Source: Scenedesmus sp. PABB004 (lineage: Eukaryota). From it: a DNA stretch of 64,000 bases. A program made the translations under genes and the position numbers. The stretch spans positions 2,046,001 through 2,110,000 of the forward strand of contig JABVCE010000002.1 in the NCBI GenBank assembly GCA_014905635.1, in the 5' to 3' direction. Shown here piece after piece: positions 1,076 through 64,000 of this stretch (the first letter of the stretch is position 1; each line of letters starts with the position of its first letter). A model generated the notes under the pieces. It was not told the DNA's origin. It ran no database searches and saw only the letters and a program-made list of their open reading frames with translations.

Positions 1076-4021
<2,946 letters not shown>

Positions 4022-43751: not shown

Positions 43752-45604
43752 ATGGACGAGCCGCAGCGCCCGCCGCCGGCGCCGCCGGTGCAGCCGCTGC
43801 TGCCCTTTGACGACCCCTGGTCGCTGCGCACGCGGCCCTGCTCGTTCGAAGTGCGGCGCCCCGGGCCAGCCGCGGCGGCAGCGACGGCGCGAGCAGCGGC
43901 GAGCCCGGCGGCCCTGCCGCGCGGAGCTCGGCGCACCGCGTGCGCGCCGCAGGACCTCGTGACTGCGGGCGAGGTGGTCTCGCTCAACCACATTCGCGAC
44001 ATGTCGGGCCAGAGAAACGTCAGCCTCGTGCGCGAGGGCACCAAGTTTGGCTGCGCGCCGGACCAGGTCGCGGGGTGAGCCGGCGCGGCGCGGCGGTCGC
44101 CGCCGCCGCCGGCTGTGCGCGGGCGCCGCGCGGCCACACAGCCGCGGCGGCGACGGCGCGCAGGTTCAAAAAGTACCTGTCGAACGTCGCCACGCTCATT
44201 GAGCAGGAGGGCGACCGCTTTGACCTGGCGTTCGAGTGGACCAGCCCGCTCAGCGGCCGCCCCGGGCGCTTCTTCCAGCTCCACGGCCTGCGCAAGGAGG
44301 CGGCCATGGTGCGGCGCGCGGCGCACTGGGCTGCCGCGCCGCGCGCGGCAGCCCCCCGCAGCCCGCCGCCGCCGACCGCCGCCGGCCGCCGCCTCGGCAG
44401 GCGACGAGCCTGTACGCCGCGCTGCTGCGCCAGCTCGCGCACCAGGGCGTGGCCGACCTGCTCGGCCTCAGCCCCGGCAGCACCGCGCTGCCGCCGGGCG
44501 GCGACGCGGCCGCGGCGGCGCTCGCGGCGGCGGTCGCGCAGCTGCGCGGCGCGGCGGGCGTGTACGAGCACCTCGCCGAGAGTGTGCTGCCGCCGCTGTT
44601 CGCCGAGCTCAAGGGCGACAGGCGCGCAGCGCCGCGCGGCGTGCACGCCGCGGCGCCGGCGTCTGGCGCGCGGGCGCGCTCGCCGCCGCCCAGCCCGCTC
44701 GCCTGCCCCGCCCGCCTACGGCCGCACGCCCACGGCCACGCACCCGCCGCGCCGCGCCCGCGCCAGGCCCGGCGAGATCATGGCGCGCCTCGCCACGGCG
44801 ATGGCGCAGCTCTGCCTCGCCGAGGCGCAGGCGCTGACCGCGTTCCGCGCCGGCGCGCGCGCCGGCAGCAGCGCGCCCGTGGTCGCGAGCCTCCACGTGG
44901 GCGCGGCGGAGCTCTACGAAAGGGGCGTGAAGACGATCCGAGATTACATCGGTGCGCGCCCGCGCCGCGCGGGCTGGCGGCGCCCCAGCCCGCGGTGGTG
45001 GCACGCAGCAGCGGCGGCCCGGCGCGCCGCCGCCGCCGCCGCCACACCCACCGCGACCGCCGCTTCGACCGCCGCGCGGCCGCGCAGGTGACTACACCAT
45101 CGCGTCGGACCGGCTGCGCCGCTACTTGGCCATTGGGGCGAGCCTCGCCACAGCGCGCGCGCACAAGGCGCGCGCAGCGCCCGCCTCGACCGCCGCGCGC
45201 GCCCGCCCGCGCGCGCGTCAGCCGGCCGGCGCCGCCGTCCGCGCGCCGAGCTCGCCGCCCGACCGCGCGCCGCGCAGGTGATGGCGGGCGAGCACCACGC
45301 GCAGCTGCAGGCCGGCGCCGCCGAGCGCGCGTGCGCCGAGGCGCAGGCGCTGCTCGCGACATGCATGTCGGCTGCCGACTGCGATGCGGCGTGGCGCGGC
45401 GTGCTGTCCGCGGAGCTGGCTGAGGTCGAGCGCATCAAGAAGCCGATCGAGAGCGATCGCCTCGTTGTGTACTGCCAGCCGCTGCCGCGCGAGGCGCCGG
45501 CGCTGCCGGCGGGCAAGGTGCTCGTGTCGCCGCTCGCCTACCAGCCCGAGCGCCTGCCCTCCACGGCGGGCGAGCTGGCGGGCGCCGCCGCCGCGCACTC
45601 GTGA
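43752..45604 (+). CDS. BRO1-like domain protein (BROX/plant endosomal-targeting type)
   Basis: FEWTSPLSG, QLRGAAGVYEHL, D|RPGE, LCLAEAQA and C-terminal VVYCQPLP...PAGK fit the BRO1 pattern. Confidence 0.75.
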
Positions 45605-46076
45605 GCCCTGCGGCGTGAGCCCTTCTGTTTATCTGCGGCAGTCAATCGTGCGTGCCACCGATCGCGAGGGCCTGACCCACCGATCAGCCCCCGCGCTGCA
45701 GCCCCCGCGCCCCTGCGTCCAGCGCCCGCGGGGGCAGGGCGGCCGCGGCCGCCGGGCCGCGGCCTCGCCCGCCGCGCCCCCGCTCGCGGCCCGCTCGCCC
45801 CGGAGGGAGAGGGACAGCCCCAAGACCCAGCCTGACGCCGCTCCGCCGCCGCGCCCGGGCCCGGGGCGCGCGGGGGCGGCCGCCGATCAATCGCAGCAGG
45901 CCCCGGCGCCCTCCCGCGCTCCCTGCGGCTCCCTGCGGGCGGGCGATCCGCCCCGGCGCCCTAGCCAACGATAGTGCGTGCGTGGGCGGCGTGGCACGCG
46001 GTCGCGTGGCGTGTGCGGCCGCCGGCGGTCGCCGGCGGCTCGCGGCGGCTGCTGCTGCTGCTGCGGCCGCGCCGCG

Positions 46077-46161
46077 GGGGCTGATGAGAAACACACACCA
46101 CAGACCTGTTCTGACAGGGTCTCAACCCATGTAGAGACTGTTCATGCACCACTCTGACCCC
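46077..46161 (+). ncRNA. C/D-box snoRNA, predicted double guide for 18S rRNA (sites equivalent to yeast Gm1428 and Gm1271)
   Basis: Terminal GGGG/CCCC stem; C box TGATGA 46082-46087. D' CTGA 46111-46114 is preceded by CACAGACCTGTT (antisense to 18S AACAGGUCUGUG). D CTGA 46154-46157 is preceded by CATGCACCACT (antisense to 18S GUGGUGCAUG). Target numbering is from recalled yeast 18S sequence plus the D+5 rule. Confidence 0.88.
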
Positions 46162-46222
46162 AGAGGCGCGCGCTGCGTGCCGTTGCGTGTGCGCGGGCGT
46201 GCGGGCGCGCTCGCGCGACAAG

Positions 46223-46302
46223 AGGCCGGTGACGACACCTTATCCCAACAGGTTCAGATCCCCCGTGATCGACAACACAACATGCACCACTATCCGAGGC
46301 CT
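46223..46302 (+). ncRNA. C/D-box snoRNA, U33/snR55-like (18S site equivalent to yeast Um1269)
   Basis: Terminal AGGCC/GGCCT stem; variant C box GTGACGA 46229-46235; variant D box CCGA 46294-46297 preceded by CATGCACCACTAT. The D+5 rule points to the U in GGUGGUGCAUG. Confidence 0.78.
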
Positions 46303-46479
46303 GCTGCCCCGTTGTTGTTGTTGCCGCGCGCGCGTGGAGGCTGCCCGCCGCAAAGCGTCGCGCGCCGGCGTCTCACCCGCCGCCCGCCGCCGCCCCGCAG
46401 GCCCACACCGGCCGCGCGCGTCGGCACGAGACGCCGCCGACGCGCCCCGCTGCCGCCGCGACTCCAGCAGAGGTGAGCG

Positions 46480-46775
46480 CAGCACGGAGGGCCACTCCGG
46501 TGGACAGATCGGCAGCCGACGCTCCCCCCGCCCCATGGCGGGGGCCCCACAAGCAGCGCGGCGGGCGCAGCAGCAACCGCGATGGAGACCCACCGGGCGA
46601 AAGTCCCCGGGAAATGAGGCAGAGAGTGCCAGCCCTAGCAGGCAGGACCCCCTCGCGCGGCTCGACCTGAGCGGCCTTGGGGCAGCTGACCGTAGCAACA
46701 GTTATGTGTGCCAGCGGGGGCCGGGGCCCCGGCCCCGCGCCCCCCGCGAACTCAACGGGGCTTACTCCCGTGCTG
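46480..46775 (+). ncRNA. RNase MRP RNA
   Basis: CR-I GAAAGTCCCC 46599-46608 and CR-V ACTCAACGGGGCTTACT 46750-46766 form the P4 pseudoknot. P8 hairpin GGCAGAGAGTGCC 46618-46630 has the MRP-type GAGAG loop. CR-IV-like ACAGTTA at 46698-46704. P3 base CCGGTGG/CCACCGG. P1 CAGCACGGAG (46480-46489) pairs with CTCCCGTGCTG (46765-46775). Confidence 0.92.
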
Positions 46776-46836
46776 ACGCCACCTGCGGGCGCCGCCGCCA
46801 CGTGCCGCCGCGCCCGCAGAGCCAGCGGCGCGACGA

Positions 46837-46899
46837 GCCAACTGACGAGTCCACTGAGCACGGACGAAACCCCGCCCCAATGCGAGCGGCGGTCTTGGC
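46837..46899 (+). ncRNA. Type I hammerhead ribozyme; predicted cleavage after GUC at 46894
   Basis: Stem I GCCAA (46837-41)/TTGGC (46895-99); core CTGACGA 46842-48; stem II GTCC/GGAC with a 9-nt loop; GAAA 46866-69; stem III ACCCCGC pairing with GCGGCGGT (one bulged C); GTC triplet 46892-94. Confidence 0.88.
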
Positions 46900-47029
46900 A
46901 AGCTCATCATCATCATCATCAGCAGCAGCAGCAGCAGGCGCAGGGGCAGCGTGTGCGTGGGCCCGCGGGCGGAGCGCCGCGCGGCGGGCTGCGCGTGGAG
47001 GTCGCAGGCCGGACGTGGACGCAGGCGTG

Positions 47030-47034
47030 TGTAA
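47030..47034 (+). terminator. Putative green-algal polyadenylation signal TGTAA for the ncRNA host transcript
   Basis: TGTAA is the known chlorophyte poly(A) signal. It lies about 135 nt downstream of the hammerhead site. Confidence 0.45.
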
Positions 47035-47068
47035 CACGTGCTTGCCCTCCGCGCGCGCTGACCCGGGG

Positions 47069-50000
47069 TCAGGGCATCTCGTCCCGCAGCGCGCGCTGGC
47101 CCGTGAGCTGCGCCACGTGCCCGCGCAGCGTGAGCTGTGGCCCCGCCGCCGGCCCGCGCGCGCCGCCGGGCGGCTGGAAGCGGGCCCGCCCGCCGCGCGC
47201 GGCGCGCCCGCCGGCGAGCCGCGCCGCCTCGGCCGCCGCCGCAGCGCGCTCCTCTGCCTCGTCGCGCTGGTTGGCCTCCAGCACGAGCGCCTTGATGGCC
47301 GATCGCTCGGCCGCCTCGCTGCGCTGCTTGGCCATCAGCCGCACCGCCATTGCCGCGTCGGCCGGCACCTGCAGCCAGCGGGAGGTGTAGCGGCGGCGGC
47401 GGCGGAGCGCGGTCGGCGAGCGGTCGACCGCGGCGCGCGGCGGGCGGCGCTGCGGCGCGGCGGGGCGGCGGCGCGCGCACGTGGATCTCGCGCGAGCGGT
47501 CGTCCTTGCCGCCGCGCCGCATCAGCAGCTTGAAGGTGATTGCGCCGCCGCCCTCGCCCTCGCCGTCCCCGCCGTACGACGGCCCGGCGGTGTGCAGCTG
47601 CAGCTGCGGCTGCTGCTGCGGCCGCAGCTGCTCCGGCGGCGCCGCAGCCGCGGCCTCGCCGCTGCTGCTCGCGGCCGCCGCCGCGGCCGGCGCGCCGGCC
47701 GCTGCCGACGGCGCCGCGGCTCGGCCCTGGCACTCCTGCGGGCGGCGGCGCGGCGGGCGGGCGGGCTGTCAGGTGGCGCCGCGGGCGCGGGGCGCCGCGC
47801 CGCCAGCCCTCGGCCGCTTGCTCCCACCGTCCCGAACCGCGGCGCGGCGCCGCGCCCGCTCCGCGCCGCGGGCGCGGCCCACCTGCAGCAGCGCCGCGTA
47901 CTCCGCCTCAAACTCGGCGTCCGCCTCGCCGCCGGCGCCGCGGTCGTACGCGTCGCCGTCGTCGTCGTCGCTGCTGCCGCCGCCGCCGCCGCCGCCGCTG
48001 CCGCCGCCACCCGAACCGCCGCCGCCGGCGCCGCCGCGGGCGGCGTCGTCAGACTCCGACTCTTCGTCGTCGTCCTCATCAATCGGCGCCAGCCCGCTCG
48101 CGCTCGCGGCCGCCTCCTTGGCCAGCAGCGCGCCCACCGCCGTCGCCGCGTCGGCGTAGCTCGCAAACCGCGGCAGCCCCGGCCGCAGCTGGTCGTACGT
48201 GTCCTGAATGGCGGCGTGGGCGGGGCGGGCGTGCACGCGCGCGTGGGCGCGCGGCGCGCCGGTCGCCGCGGCCGACCCTCCGCCCACCGCATGCGCGGCG
48301 GTCGCGCGCGCGCGCGCGCGCCCCGCGCAGCCCCGCGCCTGCAGGTCCGCGTCCACGTCGAGCGGCAGCGGCTGCTTGGCCAGCACGTACGCCTGCGCGC
48401 GCGCGTGCGCGAGCCGTCGGCGCGGGGGCGCGCGGCGCGCGGAGGACGGCCGCGCGCGGCGGGCCCGCGCCGCGCGGACGGCGCCCGCCCGCTGCCGCGC
48501 CGCACAGCCGCGGTGCCAGCCCGCCGCCGCCGCCGCACAGCCGCGGTGCCAGCCCGCTGCCGCGCGCAGCCTGCGCCCACCTGCATGAAGACCAGGAAGC
48601 GGTCCAGGCGGCGCCGCGCGGCGCCCTTGGAAAAGTACGACCCGCACGTCGCCAGCAGCGCGATCACCTGGCGCCGCGGCGGCGCGTGCGCTCGAGCGCT
48701 CGGGGCCCGAGCGGCCGCGCACAAAAGCGGCGGCGGCGCCGCGCCGCGGCGCCGCCGCCGCCGCCGTCGTGCCCTCTCGCCCGCCGCCGCCGCGCGCCGC
48801 CGCGACCGCACGCACCAGGCGCACGCGGAAAAAGTCGTCGGGCGGGTCCAGGCGGAGCGCGGCCTCCTCGCTCTCGTGGCCGTGGCCGATGAGGAGGTAC
48901 AGCACGTCAAACACGGCCCTGGAGTCCAGCAGCATGTAGTTGTAGCACTCGCCCAGCAGCCGCACCTGTGCGCCGCGCGGCGGCGGGGCACAGCGGCCGG
49001 CGCCGGGGTGGGCGGGGCGGCGGGCGGCGCCGCATGCCCCGCGGGGCGCGCGCCGCGCGCGCCGCGCGCCTGCGCGAGGCGCTGCTGGTAGTTGCCGGCG
49101 GCGGGGTGGTCCAGCCCCCAGCGCACGTCCTCGAGCGCCAGGTCGACCAGGGCGACGCCGAGGCTGTCGTGGTACTGCGCGAGCCCGCCGGCGAGCGAGG
49201 CGACGAGCCCGATGTGCGACACGCGCAGCCGCGACACCTGCGCGCGCGTCGCGGGCGGCGGCGGCGGCCTCGGCGGCGGCGGCGGGCGCGACGGCCTCGG
49301 CGGCGCGGCCGGGCGGCGGCGCGCAGGGCTTGCTCGGTCTGCACGAAGGCGTTCCGACGGCGGCGGCGGCGGCGGTGCTGCTGGCTCGCGCCTTGAGCAG
49401 GCACTTGAGCAGGTAGGGCTCCGCCTCGGCCCATGGCAGCTTGAGGAGCTTCTTGAGCACCACCACGACTGCGCCGTCGGCGAGGCGGTCAAAGACCAGG
49501 TGCCGCACGTACTCCTGCACGCACACAGCGGGCGTGGAGATGTGAGTGTGTGCGCGTGTGTGTGTGTGTGTGTGGGTGTGGGTGGGTGGGTGGAGGGGGG
49601 GGGGCTGAGTGCGCGCTGATCGCGCATCGAGCGGGCGCTGCGCGCGGCGCGCGGCGCGCGCGCCTGCATCGGCGGCCGGCGGCGGCGCTGCGTGGCCTTG
49701 TCGGGCGGGCGGCAGGCGTAGTAGGCGCTGTCGACGGCGTTGCTCTGCCGGCTGTCGAGGTTGCGCGCGTTGCGCAGCCGCATCATCACCGCCAGCAGGT
49801 TCTCCATGCGCACGCGCGACTCTGTGGCGCGGCGGGGCGGTTCGAGCCCGTGGGTCAGCGGCGTCGAGCGCGCGCGCGCGCCACCGCCGGTGGGGCCGCC
49901 CCGCGGCGCGCGGCCCGCCCGGCGGCGCACCCGGCAGGCGCAGCAGGAAGCGGCCCGCGCTCTCCACGAGCGCCGCGGCGGCGTCGACCGCGGGGCCGCT

Positions 50001-52960
50001 GAAGTCGTCCAGCAGCGCCTTGAGCCGCGCCAGCGCCGCGCTCGGGGGCGCGAGCCGGAACTTGGCGAGCTCGGCGAGGTACCTGCGGCACGGGAGCGGC
50101 AAGGCGGCGCGGGGTAAGCGCGGGCGTGAGTGTGTGAGCTTGAGTGTGGTGTGCGCGGGAGGCGGGCGGAGGTGGCGGGCGGCGCGGCCGCGGCGGCGGC
50201 GGCGCGCCGCCCGGGCGCACCGCGCGACGCGCAGGCGCGGCTCCTCGCCCGCGCGCGTGAGGTCCTTCTTGGACGCCAGCGCGTCAAACTCAGCCTCAAC
50301 CGCCGCCTGCACGCCTGCGCGGCAGCGGCCGGCCCGCACGCGTCGGCGCGCGGACCGCACCCGCGCACCCGCGGGGCAGGCGCGCGCGCGCGCAGCGCGA
50401 GAGGGCGGGGTGGGGCGGGGCGCGGCGTGCCGGTTCGTTGTGCGCCGCGCCGGCCGTGCCGCGCACCTGCGCCGACCTCTGGGTATGCCTGGCTGACCGT
50501 CGCCGCCACGCGGGCGTAGTAGGGCAGCAGCTGCAGGTTGCCGCGCGGCACGTCGACGAGCGCGCGCACGAGCTTCTTGCGCGCCCTGCCCCGGCGCGTT
50601 GGCAGGCGGGCGGGCGGTGTGGGCGCGCGGCACGCACGCACAAAGCGCACGCAGGCACACAAAGACACACGCACGCGCAGGCGCGCGCGAACACACAGGC
50701 AGGCGCACCCTTTGCTGTTGCTGTAGCAAAAGTTGACCGCCAGCTCGTCGCAGAGGTCGCGGCTGACGCTGCTCGGCAGGCGCGCCAGGATGACGTCCAC
50801 GGCGCTCGGGTGCTCCGCGACCGCCGCCGCGGCGCCGCCGTCCGGCTCCGCCGGCGCGGCGTCGCCGCCCGGGGCCGCCGCCGCCGCGCCGCCCGGGGCC
50901 GCGGCGGCCGCACCGGCGTCCGCCGCCGCGCCGCCGCCGTCGGCGGCCGGCTCGTCGCCGTCGCCCGCCGCCGCCGGCGCAGCCGCCGGCTGCGGCCGCG
51001 TCGCGTCGCGCAGCAGCACGGTCGGCACGAGGGACCACAGGTCGGGCAGCTGCTCGTAGAAGGCCCGGGTCTCGGGGTCCTCAAACACGTGCTCCGGCGC
51101 CTCGCCGCCCGCGCCGGCGCCGCCGCCGGCGCTCCCGCCGGCGCCGCCGGCGCTGCCGTCGTCCGCGCCGATGCGCGAGAACGCGTCCTCTGCCAGCTCC
51201 GGCAGCGGCTTGCGCAGCGCCTCGGCCATCACCGCGGTCGCGCGGTGCAGCAACTCGTACGCCTTGCGTGACGCCTCGTACTCCGCGGCTGCGCCCTCGG
51301 GCAGCTCGCCCCTGCGCGTGCAGGCGCGCGGTTTGCGGCTGGCGCGCCGCGGCGCGCGGCGGCCGTGCCACGCATCGCGCGCGGCGAGCGGCGGCGGTGC
51401 GCGCCGCGCGCGGCGCACTTGGTGGCGTACGCCTTGGCGTTGTCGCGGTCCAAGGTCAGCAGCGCCTGGTGCGCCTCCACGAGCGCGGCGGAGCAGGCCT
51501 CGAACGCGCGGTCGACGGCGCGGCCCAGCAGCTGCTTCTGCTCGGGCGGGAGCTGGTACCTGAGGCGGCAGCGCCCGGCGGCCGCGCGGCCGCGTGAGCG
51601 CGCGGCCGCGTGAGCGCGCGGCGCGTGAGCGCGCGGCGCGTGAGCGCGTGGGCGGGCCGTGGCCCGCACGGTGCGCCCGCAGGGCAAGACGGCAGCTGAC
51701 GGGGGCGGCGCCGCCTGCGGCGCCGGGCCCCCCGCGGCCGGCCGCACCGCTGCTTGCTCTCCTCCTCCAGCAGCGCCTGCTGCGCCTGCAGCTCCGCGAC
51801 CGCCGCCGCCAGCTCCGGCGGCAGCGACGAGACGTCCTGCGGCGGCCGGGCGCACGCCTGTCAGCGTGGGCCGCCGGCGGCGGCGCCCCGGGCTGCGCCG
51901 CGCCCGCGCGGGCGCACCTCGGCCTTTGCCAGCTCGGCCGGCAGGCCGGCGCTGCCGGGGCCCAGCCCCTCGGGCGGCGCGCCCAGCAGCAGCGGCGCGG
52001 CGGACTTGATGAAGCCACCCAGCAGCGACGCGGCGTGCAGCGAGCCGTCGCGGTCGCCGCCAAAGTCGAGGCCCGCCACCTGCGCGGCGAGGGCACCGGC
52101 GGCGGCGCGACATCAAGTCCGACCCGCCTGCCCTGGGCCGCCGCGTGCGCGCGGTCAGAGACGCCCCCGGCGCCGCGCACCAGCGCGCGGATCGCGCCCA
52201 GCAGGCCGCCGGCGTCGCTGACGATGCCGGCGGCGATCAGCTCGGGCAGCAGGCGCAGCGCGCCGCGCTGCCGCCGTGCGACGAGCCGCTCGTCCTCTGC
52301 TGCTGCTGCACGGACGGAGGCGGCGGCGCAGAGGGGAGCTTGGGCGCGGCGCGGCGGCGCGCGGGCCCGGCGCCCAGCGGCGGCCCGCCAAGCCGCCAAG
52401 CGGCGCGCACCGGCGCCGCCGCCCTTGGCGCCCAGCGCCGCCTTGGCGACCGCGGGGCCCAGGGCGCTGGCAAAATCGGGGTAGCTTCAGAGGGAGTGCG
52501 GAGGCGAGCGCGGGGCGAGCGCGGGGCGGCGGGGCGGCGCCGTCAGTTGCGGGCAGCGGGGGCAGGCACCGCGCGCGCCGCGCGCACCGCGCGTGCAGCG
52601 CCGCCGCCATGTCGAGCGCCGCCGGCACGTCCGCGGCCTTCAGCGGCGCCTCTGCTAGCGCCGCGACCGCCTCGCTCACATACTGCGGGCGCAGCACGGC
52701 AGCAGCGCGGCGCGGTCAGCCCGCGCCTCCCCCGCGCTCCATGCTGTGCGCTGCGCTGCGTGCTGCGCGCCACACCCGGCTGAGGTTGAGCTTGGCGGCC
52801 TCGGCCAGCAGCTGCGCCGCGCCGTCGGCGGAGAGGCCCCGGAGCTTGCGGATGAACGCGCCGTTCTTCTTGATGCTGCTGTCCAGCCGCCCCAGCTCGC
52901 CCTCGGCTGCGCGCGCGCGGCGCGGGCAGCGCGGGCGGCGCGGTCGGCGCGGTCGGCGCA

Positions 52961-63955: not shown

Positions 63956-64000
63956 GGGGACATAGCTCAATTGGTAGAGCGCTCGCTTTGCATGCGAGAG
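63956..64000 (+). tRNA. trnA-UGC: tRNA-Ala (anticodon UGC), truncated by the window end
   Basis: GGGGACATAGCTCAATTGGTAGAGCGCTCGCTTTGCATGCGAGAG shows the acceptor 5' strand, D-arm/A box and anticodon arm CTCGC-TTTGCAT-GCGAG. AT-rich upstream region at 63830-63890. Confidence 0.95.

Follow-up and report, generated by a model that had tools for sequence, protein, structure and literature searches.

RNase MRP matures ribosomes, and its RNA is the textbook case of a catalytic RNA that RNA polymerase III (Pol III) makes. The region described here, from the green alga Scenedesmus sp. PABB004, is probably a small-RNA host gene transcribed by RNA polymerase II (Pol II), with introns from which the RNase MRP RNA and two C/D small nucleolar RNAs (snoRNAs) would be born. 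The reading of a host gene with an intronic MRP RNA is well supported; what we infer is that splicing takes place, where the branch point lies, and in which order the steps run. The analyzed stretch, referred to as the window, comprises 64,000 nucleotides (nt) with a G+C content of 77.8% (NCBI GenBank assembly GCA_014905635.1, contig JABVCE010000002.1, positions 2,046,001 to 2,110,000 of the forward strand). Coordinates are counted from its first letter, features lie on the plus strand unless stated otherwise, and a slash in a splice-site motif marks the exon-intron border.

The RNase MRP RNA was identified by the Rfam model RNase_MRP (RF00030), which matches positions 46551-46777 of the plus strand with 53.4 bits (gathering score of 50). 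CR-I (GAAAGUCCCC) and CR-V (ACNCAACGGGGCUUA-like) were aligned to the model with high posterior probability, as was the GARAR loop of P8, which reads GAGAG in GCAGAGAGUGC; GARAR is given as a criterion for MRP RNA in the passages of PMC4287351 that treat it. Relatives were obtained by scanning public metagenome contigs with the CR-I and P8 words of the MRP RNA, which delivered 73 loci that appear to be green-algal by their likeness to the printed MRP RNA of Ostreococcus tauri. With the window included, 81 MRP cores were obtained, and grouping at an identity of at least 90% gave 35 clusters; 33 clusters are judgeable, and two come without upstream sequence. Within the MRP RNA, the relatives are about 75-84% identical to the window, and all 13 related loci that were tested pass the Rfam threshold (51.5-112.7 bits).

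Alignment with these relatives, combined with the Rfam core match, places the MRP RNA at 46473..46782 (approximate ends). In its closing helix, 46473-46489 pairs with 46765-46782 (duplex energy of -27.0 kcal/mol), starting at the first nucleotide of the intron described below, and the helix is kept through compensating changes between the window (CAGCACGG/CCGTGCTG) and the relatives L053 (CAGTGCGG/CCGCACTG) and L044 (CAGCGCGG/CCGCGCTG). Rfam misplaced the 5' strand of this helix in the window, setting it at 46551, where the alignment of relatives gives a start at 46473. Both the misplacement and the low score are probably due to a GC-rich insertion (46505-46550), which the 5' domain of the MRP RNA shows relative to most relatives. 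In L044, L063, and L020, the MRP model starts 4-6 nt inside the GT.

The predicted intron (46473..46819, 347 nt) consists essentially of the MRP RNA, a 37-nt C-rich tail, and CAG at 46817-46819; it opens with the donor AG/GTGAGC and contains the motif CTGAC. The bulged A of this conserved CUGAC (46776), which lies in the closing helix, is a candidate branch point, and CTGAC stands at a constant offset past CR-V in most intron-type loci. A donor-like AG/G[TC]RNG was found in 25 of the 33 judgeable clusters, located 61-133 nt upstream of the core at the start of the closing helix; the background density of this pattern in the loci is 0.0014 per nt. A search for the helix strand that used no pattern gave the same ag/GT context. 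Furthermore, ag/GT[GA][AG]G is present in 7/7 relatives whose sequence can be aligned up to the MRP 5' end, and the sequence upstream of the AG is unalignable. Three of the 25 donor clusters carry GC donors (L005/L025/L026/L065; L014/L019/L072; L039), for example ccag/GCACGAG and aaaag/GCAAGG, and these GC-starting MRP introns can, on their sequences, be assigned to the minor GC-AG class with strong consensus.

The same signals recur when one representative per lineage is considered. For 22 lineage representatives, the predicted intron lengths range from 251 to 357 nt, and a GT or GC start, a branch-like motif, a C/T-rich tract, and a YAG end were found in each of them as well as in the window. 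The closing duplex, with energies between -19.5 and -34.9 kcal/mol, begins with the first intron nucleotide in 13 of the 22 and in no case later than intron nt 5, and the first YAG follows 3-76 nt past the helix, where it closes a C/T-rich tail (22/22). At position -3, the representatives with both ends have A ten times, C ten times, G twice, and T never; as this composition corresponds to MAG, the site is a donor and not an acceptor (YAG). In the 3' strands of the relatives that were read, a consistent partner for the AG upstream of the MRP RNA was not seen, which means that its conservation is not accounted for by RNA structure. Some loci hold tandem arrays of two to three units, each made of an exon and an MRP intron (L031 with cores at 3001, 3536, and 4118; L046, L052, and L070 with cores about 460-470 nt apart). 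Each tandem MRP copy was seen to have its own ag/GT donor and CAG/gt acceptor, resembling tandem snoRNA host units.

Upstream of the MRP RNA, both snoRNAs lie in a predicted intron 1 (45974..46400), which has a donor-like start (GTGCGT) and, toward its end, CTCAC (46372-46376), a C-rich tract, and CAG (46398-46400). Between this CAG acceptor and the AG/GT donor of the MRP intron lies a predicted internal exon of 72 nt (46401..46472) that ends in AG; except for this final AG, its sequence is unconserved in relatives. In a permissive Rfam scan of 45600-47200, the first C/D snoRNA (46074..46163), which carries two guides, was matched by SNORD33 (26.3 bits, E 0.062) and snR56 (25 bits). Its boxes are canonical (C box 46082-46087, D' box 46111-46114, D box 46154-46157), and its D' guide agrees with the snR56 consensus. 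The second (46222..46303) is of the U33/SNORD33 type (SNORD33, 41.2 bits, E 1.3e-5), and its guide CAUGCACCAC fits the SNORD33 family consensus. The gathering score of SNORD33/Z195 (RF00133), which is 44, is reached by neither snoRNA (41.2 and 26.3 bits), and the snR56 match likewise stays below its own; both snoRNAs are SNORD33-like and not certified family members. The boxes of the second snoRNA deviate, with GUGACGA (46229-46235) and CCGA (46294-46297) in place of RUGAUGA and CUGA, and its counterpart in L053 has AUGAGGA and CUGA. The two changes from U to C affect what we take to be the positions of the kink-turn U-U pair and may represent a paired change.

The linkage of these snoRNAs to the MRP RNA is found in relatives as well. 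In 27 of the 73 loci, the U33-type guide word CATGCACCAC occurs on the MRP strand within 800 nt of the MRP core; none of the 73 has it there on the opposite strand. Stretches homologous to the first snoRNA stand beside the MRP RNA in 11 loci (including L053, L063, L002, and L057), and the second snoRNA is 84% identical to its copy in L053. L053 and L063, which are the nearest relatives, show the same order of snoRNA 1, snoRNA 2, acceptor, exon, and MRP intron, the exon being short (about 168 and 82 nt) and unconserved. In several loci, SNORD33 was matched by Rfam on the MRP strand with 34-41 bits. Since snoZ159/U59 was also found above the Rfam threshold, upstream of the MRP RNA and on the same strand (L020, 615-705; L010, 252-342; L007, 1094-1184, minus strand; L057, 2563-2642, minus strand), the small-RNA cluster holds more than the U33-type snoRNA.

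RNA data come from three freshwater metatranscriptomes, which are the runs that contain any of the stretch (shares of 0.05-0.06) and whose contigs cover the MRP RNA only; the lack of cover over the exons, the snoRNAs, and the hammerhead counts neither for nor against them. Two contigs are identical to the window over 46485-46611 (X1) and 46485-46643 (X2), and most contigs over 46590-46650 are MRP cores of other organisms (90-95% identity). A third contig (X3, 169 nt, depth of 2.7) reads 46641-46775, two extra letters, and then 46473-46504, which puts RNA ends at the predicted donor and at CUGAC. Such a back-joint (46775 to 46473) would be expected from reverse transcription across a lariat branch, and it could also come from a circle or a template jump.

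Put together, the proposed route starts with a host that would be transcribed by Pol II, either as its own non-coding RNA or as the 3' untranslated region (UTR) of the upstream BRO1-like gene. Intron 1 would be spliced out, and the two C/D snoRNAs would be freed by the usual trimming of the excised intron. The second intron (46473-46819) would itself be the MRP RNA, with base 1 of the intron as base 1 of the RNA. As these first bases coincide and only a short tail and CAG lie beyond the helix, the 5' end of the MRP RNA would be set by splicing. The GUGAGCG of the 5' splice site would then pair with the bases just 3' of CUGAC and thereby close the terminal helix, and trimming, either once the intron is debranched or while it is still a lariat, would shorten the tail as far as the helix and so produce the 3' end. 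A bolder proposal is that green-algal MRP RNA is born as a lariat with the bulged A of CUGAC as the branch, that part of the pool possibly works branch-closed, and that an active hammerhead here ends the host without polyadenylation, which would be the first natural one to serve an snoRNA/MRP host; we consider this combination quite unlikely.

Several observations count against the reading of an intron-born MRP RNA. The donors were counted by searching the 200 nt upstream of the core for a pattern, with two members printed per cluster. Because the GTRAG bases belong to the conserved helix, independent evidence for splicing is limited to the AG upstream, the YAG downstream, and the variants with a GC donor. 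For intron 1, the acceptor side is good and the donor is weak (TA rather than AG before 45974), which leaves it as a candidate only. The back-joint is a single contig with a depth of 2.7 and two unexplained letters, and it may reflect a template jump of the reverse transcriptase. No spliced read or exon-exon junction was found among the contigs, all of which are confined to the MRP RNA. In eight of the 33 clusters (the L016 group, L012, L022, L041, L047, L064, L066, and L069), no donor was found, and the O. tauri study took a T-stretch as grounds for reading its MRP gene as Pol III-transcribed (PMC7671301, in the passages on this RNA).

The lack of junction reads would also fit an unspliced polycistronic precursor, from which endo- and exonucleases would cut the MRP RNA and the snoRNAs as in the snoRNA clusters of plants and yeast, with the splice-like signals idle. 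The position of the MRP RNA within same-strand snoRNA clusters agrees with such a precursor, and O. tauri has both polycistronic and intronic snoRNA arrangements according to the parts of PMC7671301 that describe them. However, an unspliced precursor gives no reason for the AG that is kept just before base 1 of the RNA, and it leaves unexplained both the GC-donor variants that keep AG/GCAAGG and the YAG that ends the C/T-rich tail in 22/22 representatives. We therefore regard it as very unlikely.

The donor-less clusters bring up a second alternative, in which a stand-alone Pol III gene (or a Pol II gene that has its own promoter) starts at 46473 and makes the MRP RNA, as in animals, plants, and the published O. 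tauri case. Four of these clusters (L012, L022, L066, and L069) have TTTT 17-26 nt past CR-V and thus an ordinary Pol III look, so that both MRP gene types, intron-like and Pol III-like, seem to occur in the metagenome set. Two other donor-less loci, L041 and L064, are AT-rich. An independent gene is the textbook arrangement, and Pol III signals for MRP RNA are reported for all 26 insects surveyed and Pol III transcription for all animals examined (PMC4287351, in the sections concerned). In the window, by contrast, TTTT as a Pol III terminator run is absent from the whole of 45600-47400, no TATA-like sequence was seen by reading in the 72 nt upstream of the MRP RNA, and the conserved donor and acceptor signals are in place; we give an independent gene here hardly any credence. 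The T-stretches of L007, L010, L020, and L057 may equally be polypyrimidine tracts because they lie inside the C/T tract that ends in YAG, which suggests that T-stretches of the O. tauri type could be the pyrimidine tract of an intron.

The O. tauri RNA itself (Ot-MRP) is 246 nt long and uncapped, and its printed sequence ends in ...CUGAC (PMC7671301, in the passages on this RNA). It resembles the window's RNA as a green-lineage MRP RNA with CUGAC near the 3' end; unlike in our reading of the window, the same passages class it as intergenic and, because of its 3' T-stretch, as a Pol III product. In the O. tauri supplement, an incomplete search at six coordinate prefixes gave no snoRNA neighboring Ot-MRP.

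According to the first-pass annotation of this DNA, a single host transcript supplies two snoRNAs and an MRP RNA from its introns, one of which the MRP RNA fills. This part has held up, given the donor in 25/33 clusters, the YAG after a C/T-rich tail, the order in L053 and L063, and the absence of Pol III terminator runs, and the motifs on which it was built are present: GTGCGT (45974), CTCAC (46372-46376), CAG (46398-46400), AG/GTGAGC (G at 46473), CTGAC (46773-46777), CAG (46817-46819), and TGTAA (47030). The same annotation had the spliced host cut itself by a hammerhead ribozyme, which is not borne out so far: no hammerhead was found in the 73 loci, the score is 16.3 bits where 34 are needed, and other folds are 10-12 kcal/mol better. 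Among the families that it had expected from Rfam, RNase_MRP was recovered (53.4 bits against 50), the SNORD33-like match was significant and below its threshold, and Hammerhead_1 failed (16.3 against 34). Of the synteny that it had anticipated, the order of snoRNAs and MRP RNA is kept in L053 and L063, and a hammerhead downstream of the MRP RNA is seen in 0/73 loci.

The motif in question is a type I hammerhead (46837..46899) with predicted cleavage at 46894/46895, found by a descriptor and by the Rfam model Hammerhead_1 (RF00163). It lies in the sense orientation, 18 nt past the acceptor of the MRP intron and 136 nt before TGTAA, in a predicted terminal exon (46820..47050) that follows the CAG at 46817-46819 and whose 3' limit was guessed just past the TGTAA (47030-47034). 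The core reads CUGACGA...GAAA...UC with all 13 core positions canonical and GUC as the cleavage triplet. The pairs next to the core are intact, namely, A-U (2.1-1.1), G-C (10.1-11.1), and A-U (15.1-16.1); stem II and the flanking core agree with the Rfam consensus letter for letter, and stem III has one single-base bulge. With this core, these pairs, and no multiple mispairs in its short stems, the motif passes all three false-positive filters of PMC3088659. A strict descriptor (minimum lengths of 5, 4, and 3 bp for stems I, II, and III, with A15.1-U16.1 in stem III, together with CUGANGA, GAAA, and H17) gave one match in the window, which is this motif (46837-46899), and none in 200 plus 2,304 dinucleotide shuffles of the 64 kb on both strands, so that the chance expectation from 0/2,504 shuffles is below about 0.0012 per 64 kb. 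With a looser descriptor, three matches were obtained in 2,304 shuffles. The site is also the sole CTGANGA of the 64-kb window that has GAAA 14-70 nt later. When folded in isolation, the 63-mer forms the hammerhead (minimum free energy of -17.4 kcal/mol).

Other results speak against an active ribozyme. Hammerhead_1 covers 46836-46900 at full model length with only 16.3 bits against a gathering score of 34, and the E-value of 0.15 was obtained when 46810-46930 (121 bases) was searched alone; in the 1.6-kb Rfam scan (45600-47200), Hammerhead_1 was not matched at E up to 10. After rescaling, the Infernal E-value corresponds to about 0.02 such matches per window for this one family, which is much milder than what the shuffles gave. 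Stem I is open and no longer than 5 bp, without evident tertiary contact. A fold of 46830-46910 (81 nt) does not form the hammerhead (z = 0.07), and in contexts of 141 and 241 nt the fold constrained to it is 10-12 kcal/mol worse. Under a relaxed descriptor, a hammerhead is absent from all 73 related MRP loci (in 62 of them, the sequence continues for 300 nt or more past the MRP RNA), and Rfam gave no hammerhead at E up to 0.05 in the 13 relatives. The predicted terminal exon (46820-47050) has no similarity to any related locus. The motif in this exon is a lineage-specific addition, and judging from the relatives it does not belong to the conserved host design. The chances that the candidate hammerhead cuts in vivo are about even.

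These results can be accommodated in three ways. The motif may be a chance or non-functional one, with the host ending by ordinary polyadenylation after the TGTAA at 47030 and without a cut at 46894/46895; this is a serious contender that we place slightly below an even chance. Its low score (with the E of 0.15 reached only in the 121-base search), its absence from the 73 loci under the relaxed descriptor and from the 13 relatives by Rfam, the fold z of 0.07, and the better competing folds all agree with it. PMC3088659, in the passages on false positives, warns that consensus-conforming sequences arise by chance and names non-conservation in close relatives as a sign of this. Against chance stand the 0/2,504 shuffles, the motif's place as the sole CTGANGA...GAAA pair of the window, the canonical core and adjacent pairs, the stem II that matches the Rfam consensus, and the isolated 63-mer that folds as a hammerhead. 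Moreover, as the available relatives are distant (about 75-84% within the MRP RNA), absence from them is weak evidence.

Alternatively, an active hammerhead may be part of the host design and, after splicing, remove the poly(A) end or open the host to exonucleases. The sense orientation and the position 18 nt past the acceptor and 136 nt before TGTAA would agree with this, as would the improbability of the motif by chance, and a cut before the overlap with the convergent UPF2-like gene (see below) could be useful. Nevertheless, this self-cleavage is unlikely. The hammerhead is not conserved where the host architecture is kept, so that the relatives manage without it, and cutting would destroy the BRO1-like messenger RNA (mRNA) if the host is its 3' UTR. 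In addition, the 5'-OH left by hammerhead cleavage offers 5'-3' exonucleases a poor entry. If the hammerhead is active, the host would be severed 75 nt after the MRP intron and its poly(A) end detached, and the motif would rank among the rare eukaryotic ribozymes that are present in single copy and whose target transcript can be identified.

A third possibility is that the hammerhead is the relic of a mobile element (a retrozyme or a Penelope-like element) that landed beside a microsatellite. A (CAT)5(CAG)6 microsatellite (46905..46937), noticed by reading, indeed lies directly 3' of the motif, and microsatellites are the preferred targets of Chlamys elements (PMC8557442, in its passages on target sites). 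Likewise, most eukaryotic hammerheads sit in repeats according to the relevant part of PMC3088659, and tandem hammerhead copies are mentioned for Chlamydomonas reinhardtii in a passage of PMC5680766. However, the motif is present as a single copy in 64 kb with no second hammerhead, its flanks are unrepeated, and green-algal Chlamys elements are described in the same passages of PMC8557442 as having no canonical hammerheads, save for subclades in Chara braunii and spike mosses. A mobile origin thus appears highly improbable. Compared with known type I hammerheads (RF00163, including the single-copy intronic ones of amniotes, in the sections of PMC3088659 that describe them), the motif shares the core, G10.1-C11.1, A15.1-U16.1, GUC, and the open stem I. 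It differs in its score below the threshold, a 9-nt loop 2, a 21-nt insert in stem III relative to the model, its lack of conservation, and the absence of a repeat context, and, unlike the amniote motifs, it is exonic, within a small-RNA host. The literature search returned no related paper in which a hammerhead ribozyme is joined with an snoRNA host gene.

Intronic origins of small RNAs are well known. Chlamydomonas has intronic snoRNA clusters, in mirtrons splicing defines the end or ends of the small RNA, and stable lariats bearing snoRNAs have reportedly been found. The host described here is similar in that splicing would fix the RNA end or ends, several small RNAs are carried per host, and some intronic RNAs persist as lariats in those systems. 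It is different in its cargo, which is a ribozyme RNA of about 310 nt with a terminal helix that spans the 5' splice site and a branch-like CUGAC. In insects and crustaceans, RNase P RNA is embedded in an intron (PMC4287351 and PMC6797745, in the passages on these introns), which is a close parallel: a catalytic RNA of the P/MRP family likewise has lost its Pol III signals, lies in the intron of a Pol II transcript, and needs to be processed out. There, as described in those passages, the RNase P RNA lies inside a larger intron, whereas here the MRP RNA would extend from intron nt 1 and hold the bases of the splice site in its closing helix. In the red alga Cyanidioschyzon merolae, a stable intronic RNA annotated as RNase MRP RNA has been listed beside 11 intronic C/D snoRNAs (bioRxiv 10.1101/2025.12.01.691491). 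This is a passing mention with details deferred, and the passages of that preprint that mention it give no ends, splice-site overlap, snoRNA linkage, or green lineage. Our literature search, in which subscription journals were thinly covered so that earlier descriptions may exist, returned no further intronic MRP RNA in green algae.

On the evidence of the metagenome loci, the intronic-MRP layout appears to be common to many algal lineages. If the reading is true, the output of MRP RNA would be tied to Pol II transcription and splicing, together with that of snoRNAs of the same pathway, and the case of insect RNase P would be extended to MRP and to another kingdom. The Pol III reading for Ostreococcus would then have to be revised. 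For annotators, the case is a caution that P/MRP candidates lacking Pol III signals should not be discarded.

As for the host itself, a separate non-coding RNA is one possibility and the 3' UTR of the BRO1-like gene the other; the stop codon of this gene (45602..45604, at the end of the open reading frame) lies upstream of the RNA-bearing introns. The piece of upstream exon that was compared with Pfam BRO1 scores 18.2 bits (E 0.0012), which is below the cut-off of 35.1. The TGTAA at 47030 is the sole copy in 45600-47400, and no other lies between the BRO1 stop codon and this position. In the 64 kb, TGTAA occurs four times on the plus strand and five times on the minus strand at a chance expectation of 3.8; as it is no commoner than chance, it does not help to decide between a BRO1 3' UTR and a separate host. 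Across the MRP-intron junction, no convincing reading frame was found in the flanks of eight Mamiellales-like loci, L063, and the window. In the related locus L067, an open reading frame with the end ...LLVPGGTGPE*, which by eye resembles Sm/LSm, has its stop about 30 nt upstream of the MRP donor; if so, the MRP intron would there sit in the 3' UTR of a protein gene.

On the other side of the host lies a convergent neighbor on the minus strand, a UPF2-like gene (47069-52486) with its stop codon at 47069..47071 in an open reading frame of 47069-47521. UPF2 is a factor of nonsense-mediated decay. Pfam Upf2 matches this neighbor with 27.7 bits (E 5e-6), and MIF4G is matched farther upstream with 24.6 bits. 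As the nearest TGTAA on the strand of this gene is found only at 44944, its 3' UTR probably overlaps the last exon of the host and the hammerhead in antisense. At the far end of the window, the first 44 positions of a tRNA gene (63956-64000, plus strand, 34.7 bits) are present, the remainder being cut off by the window end.

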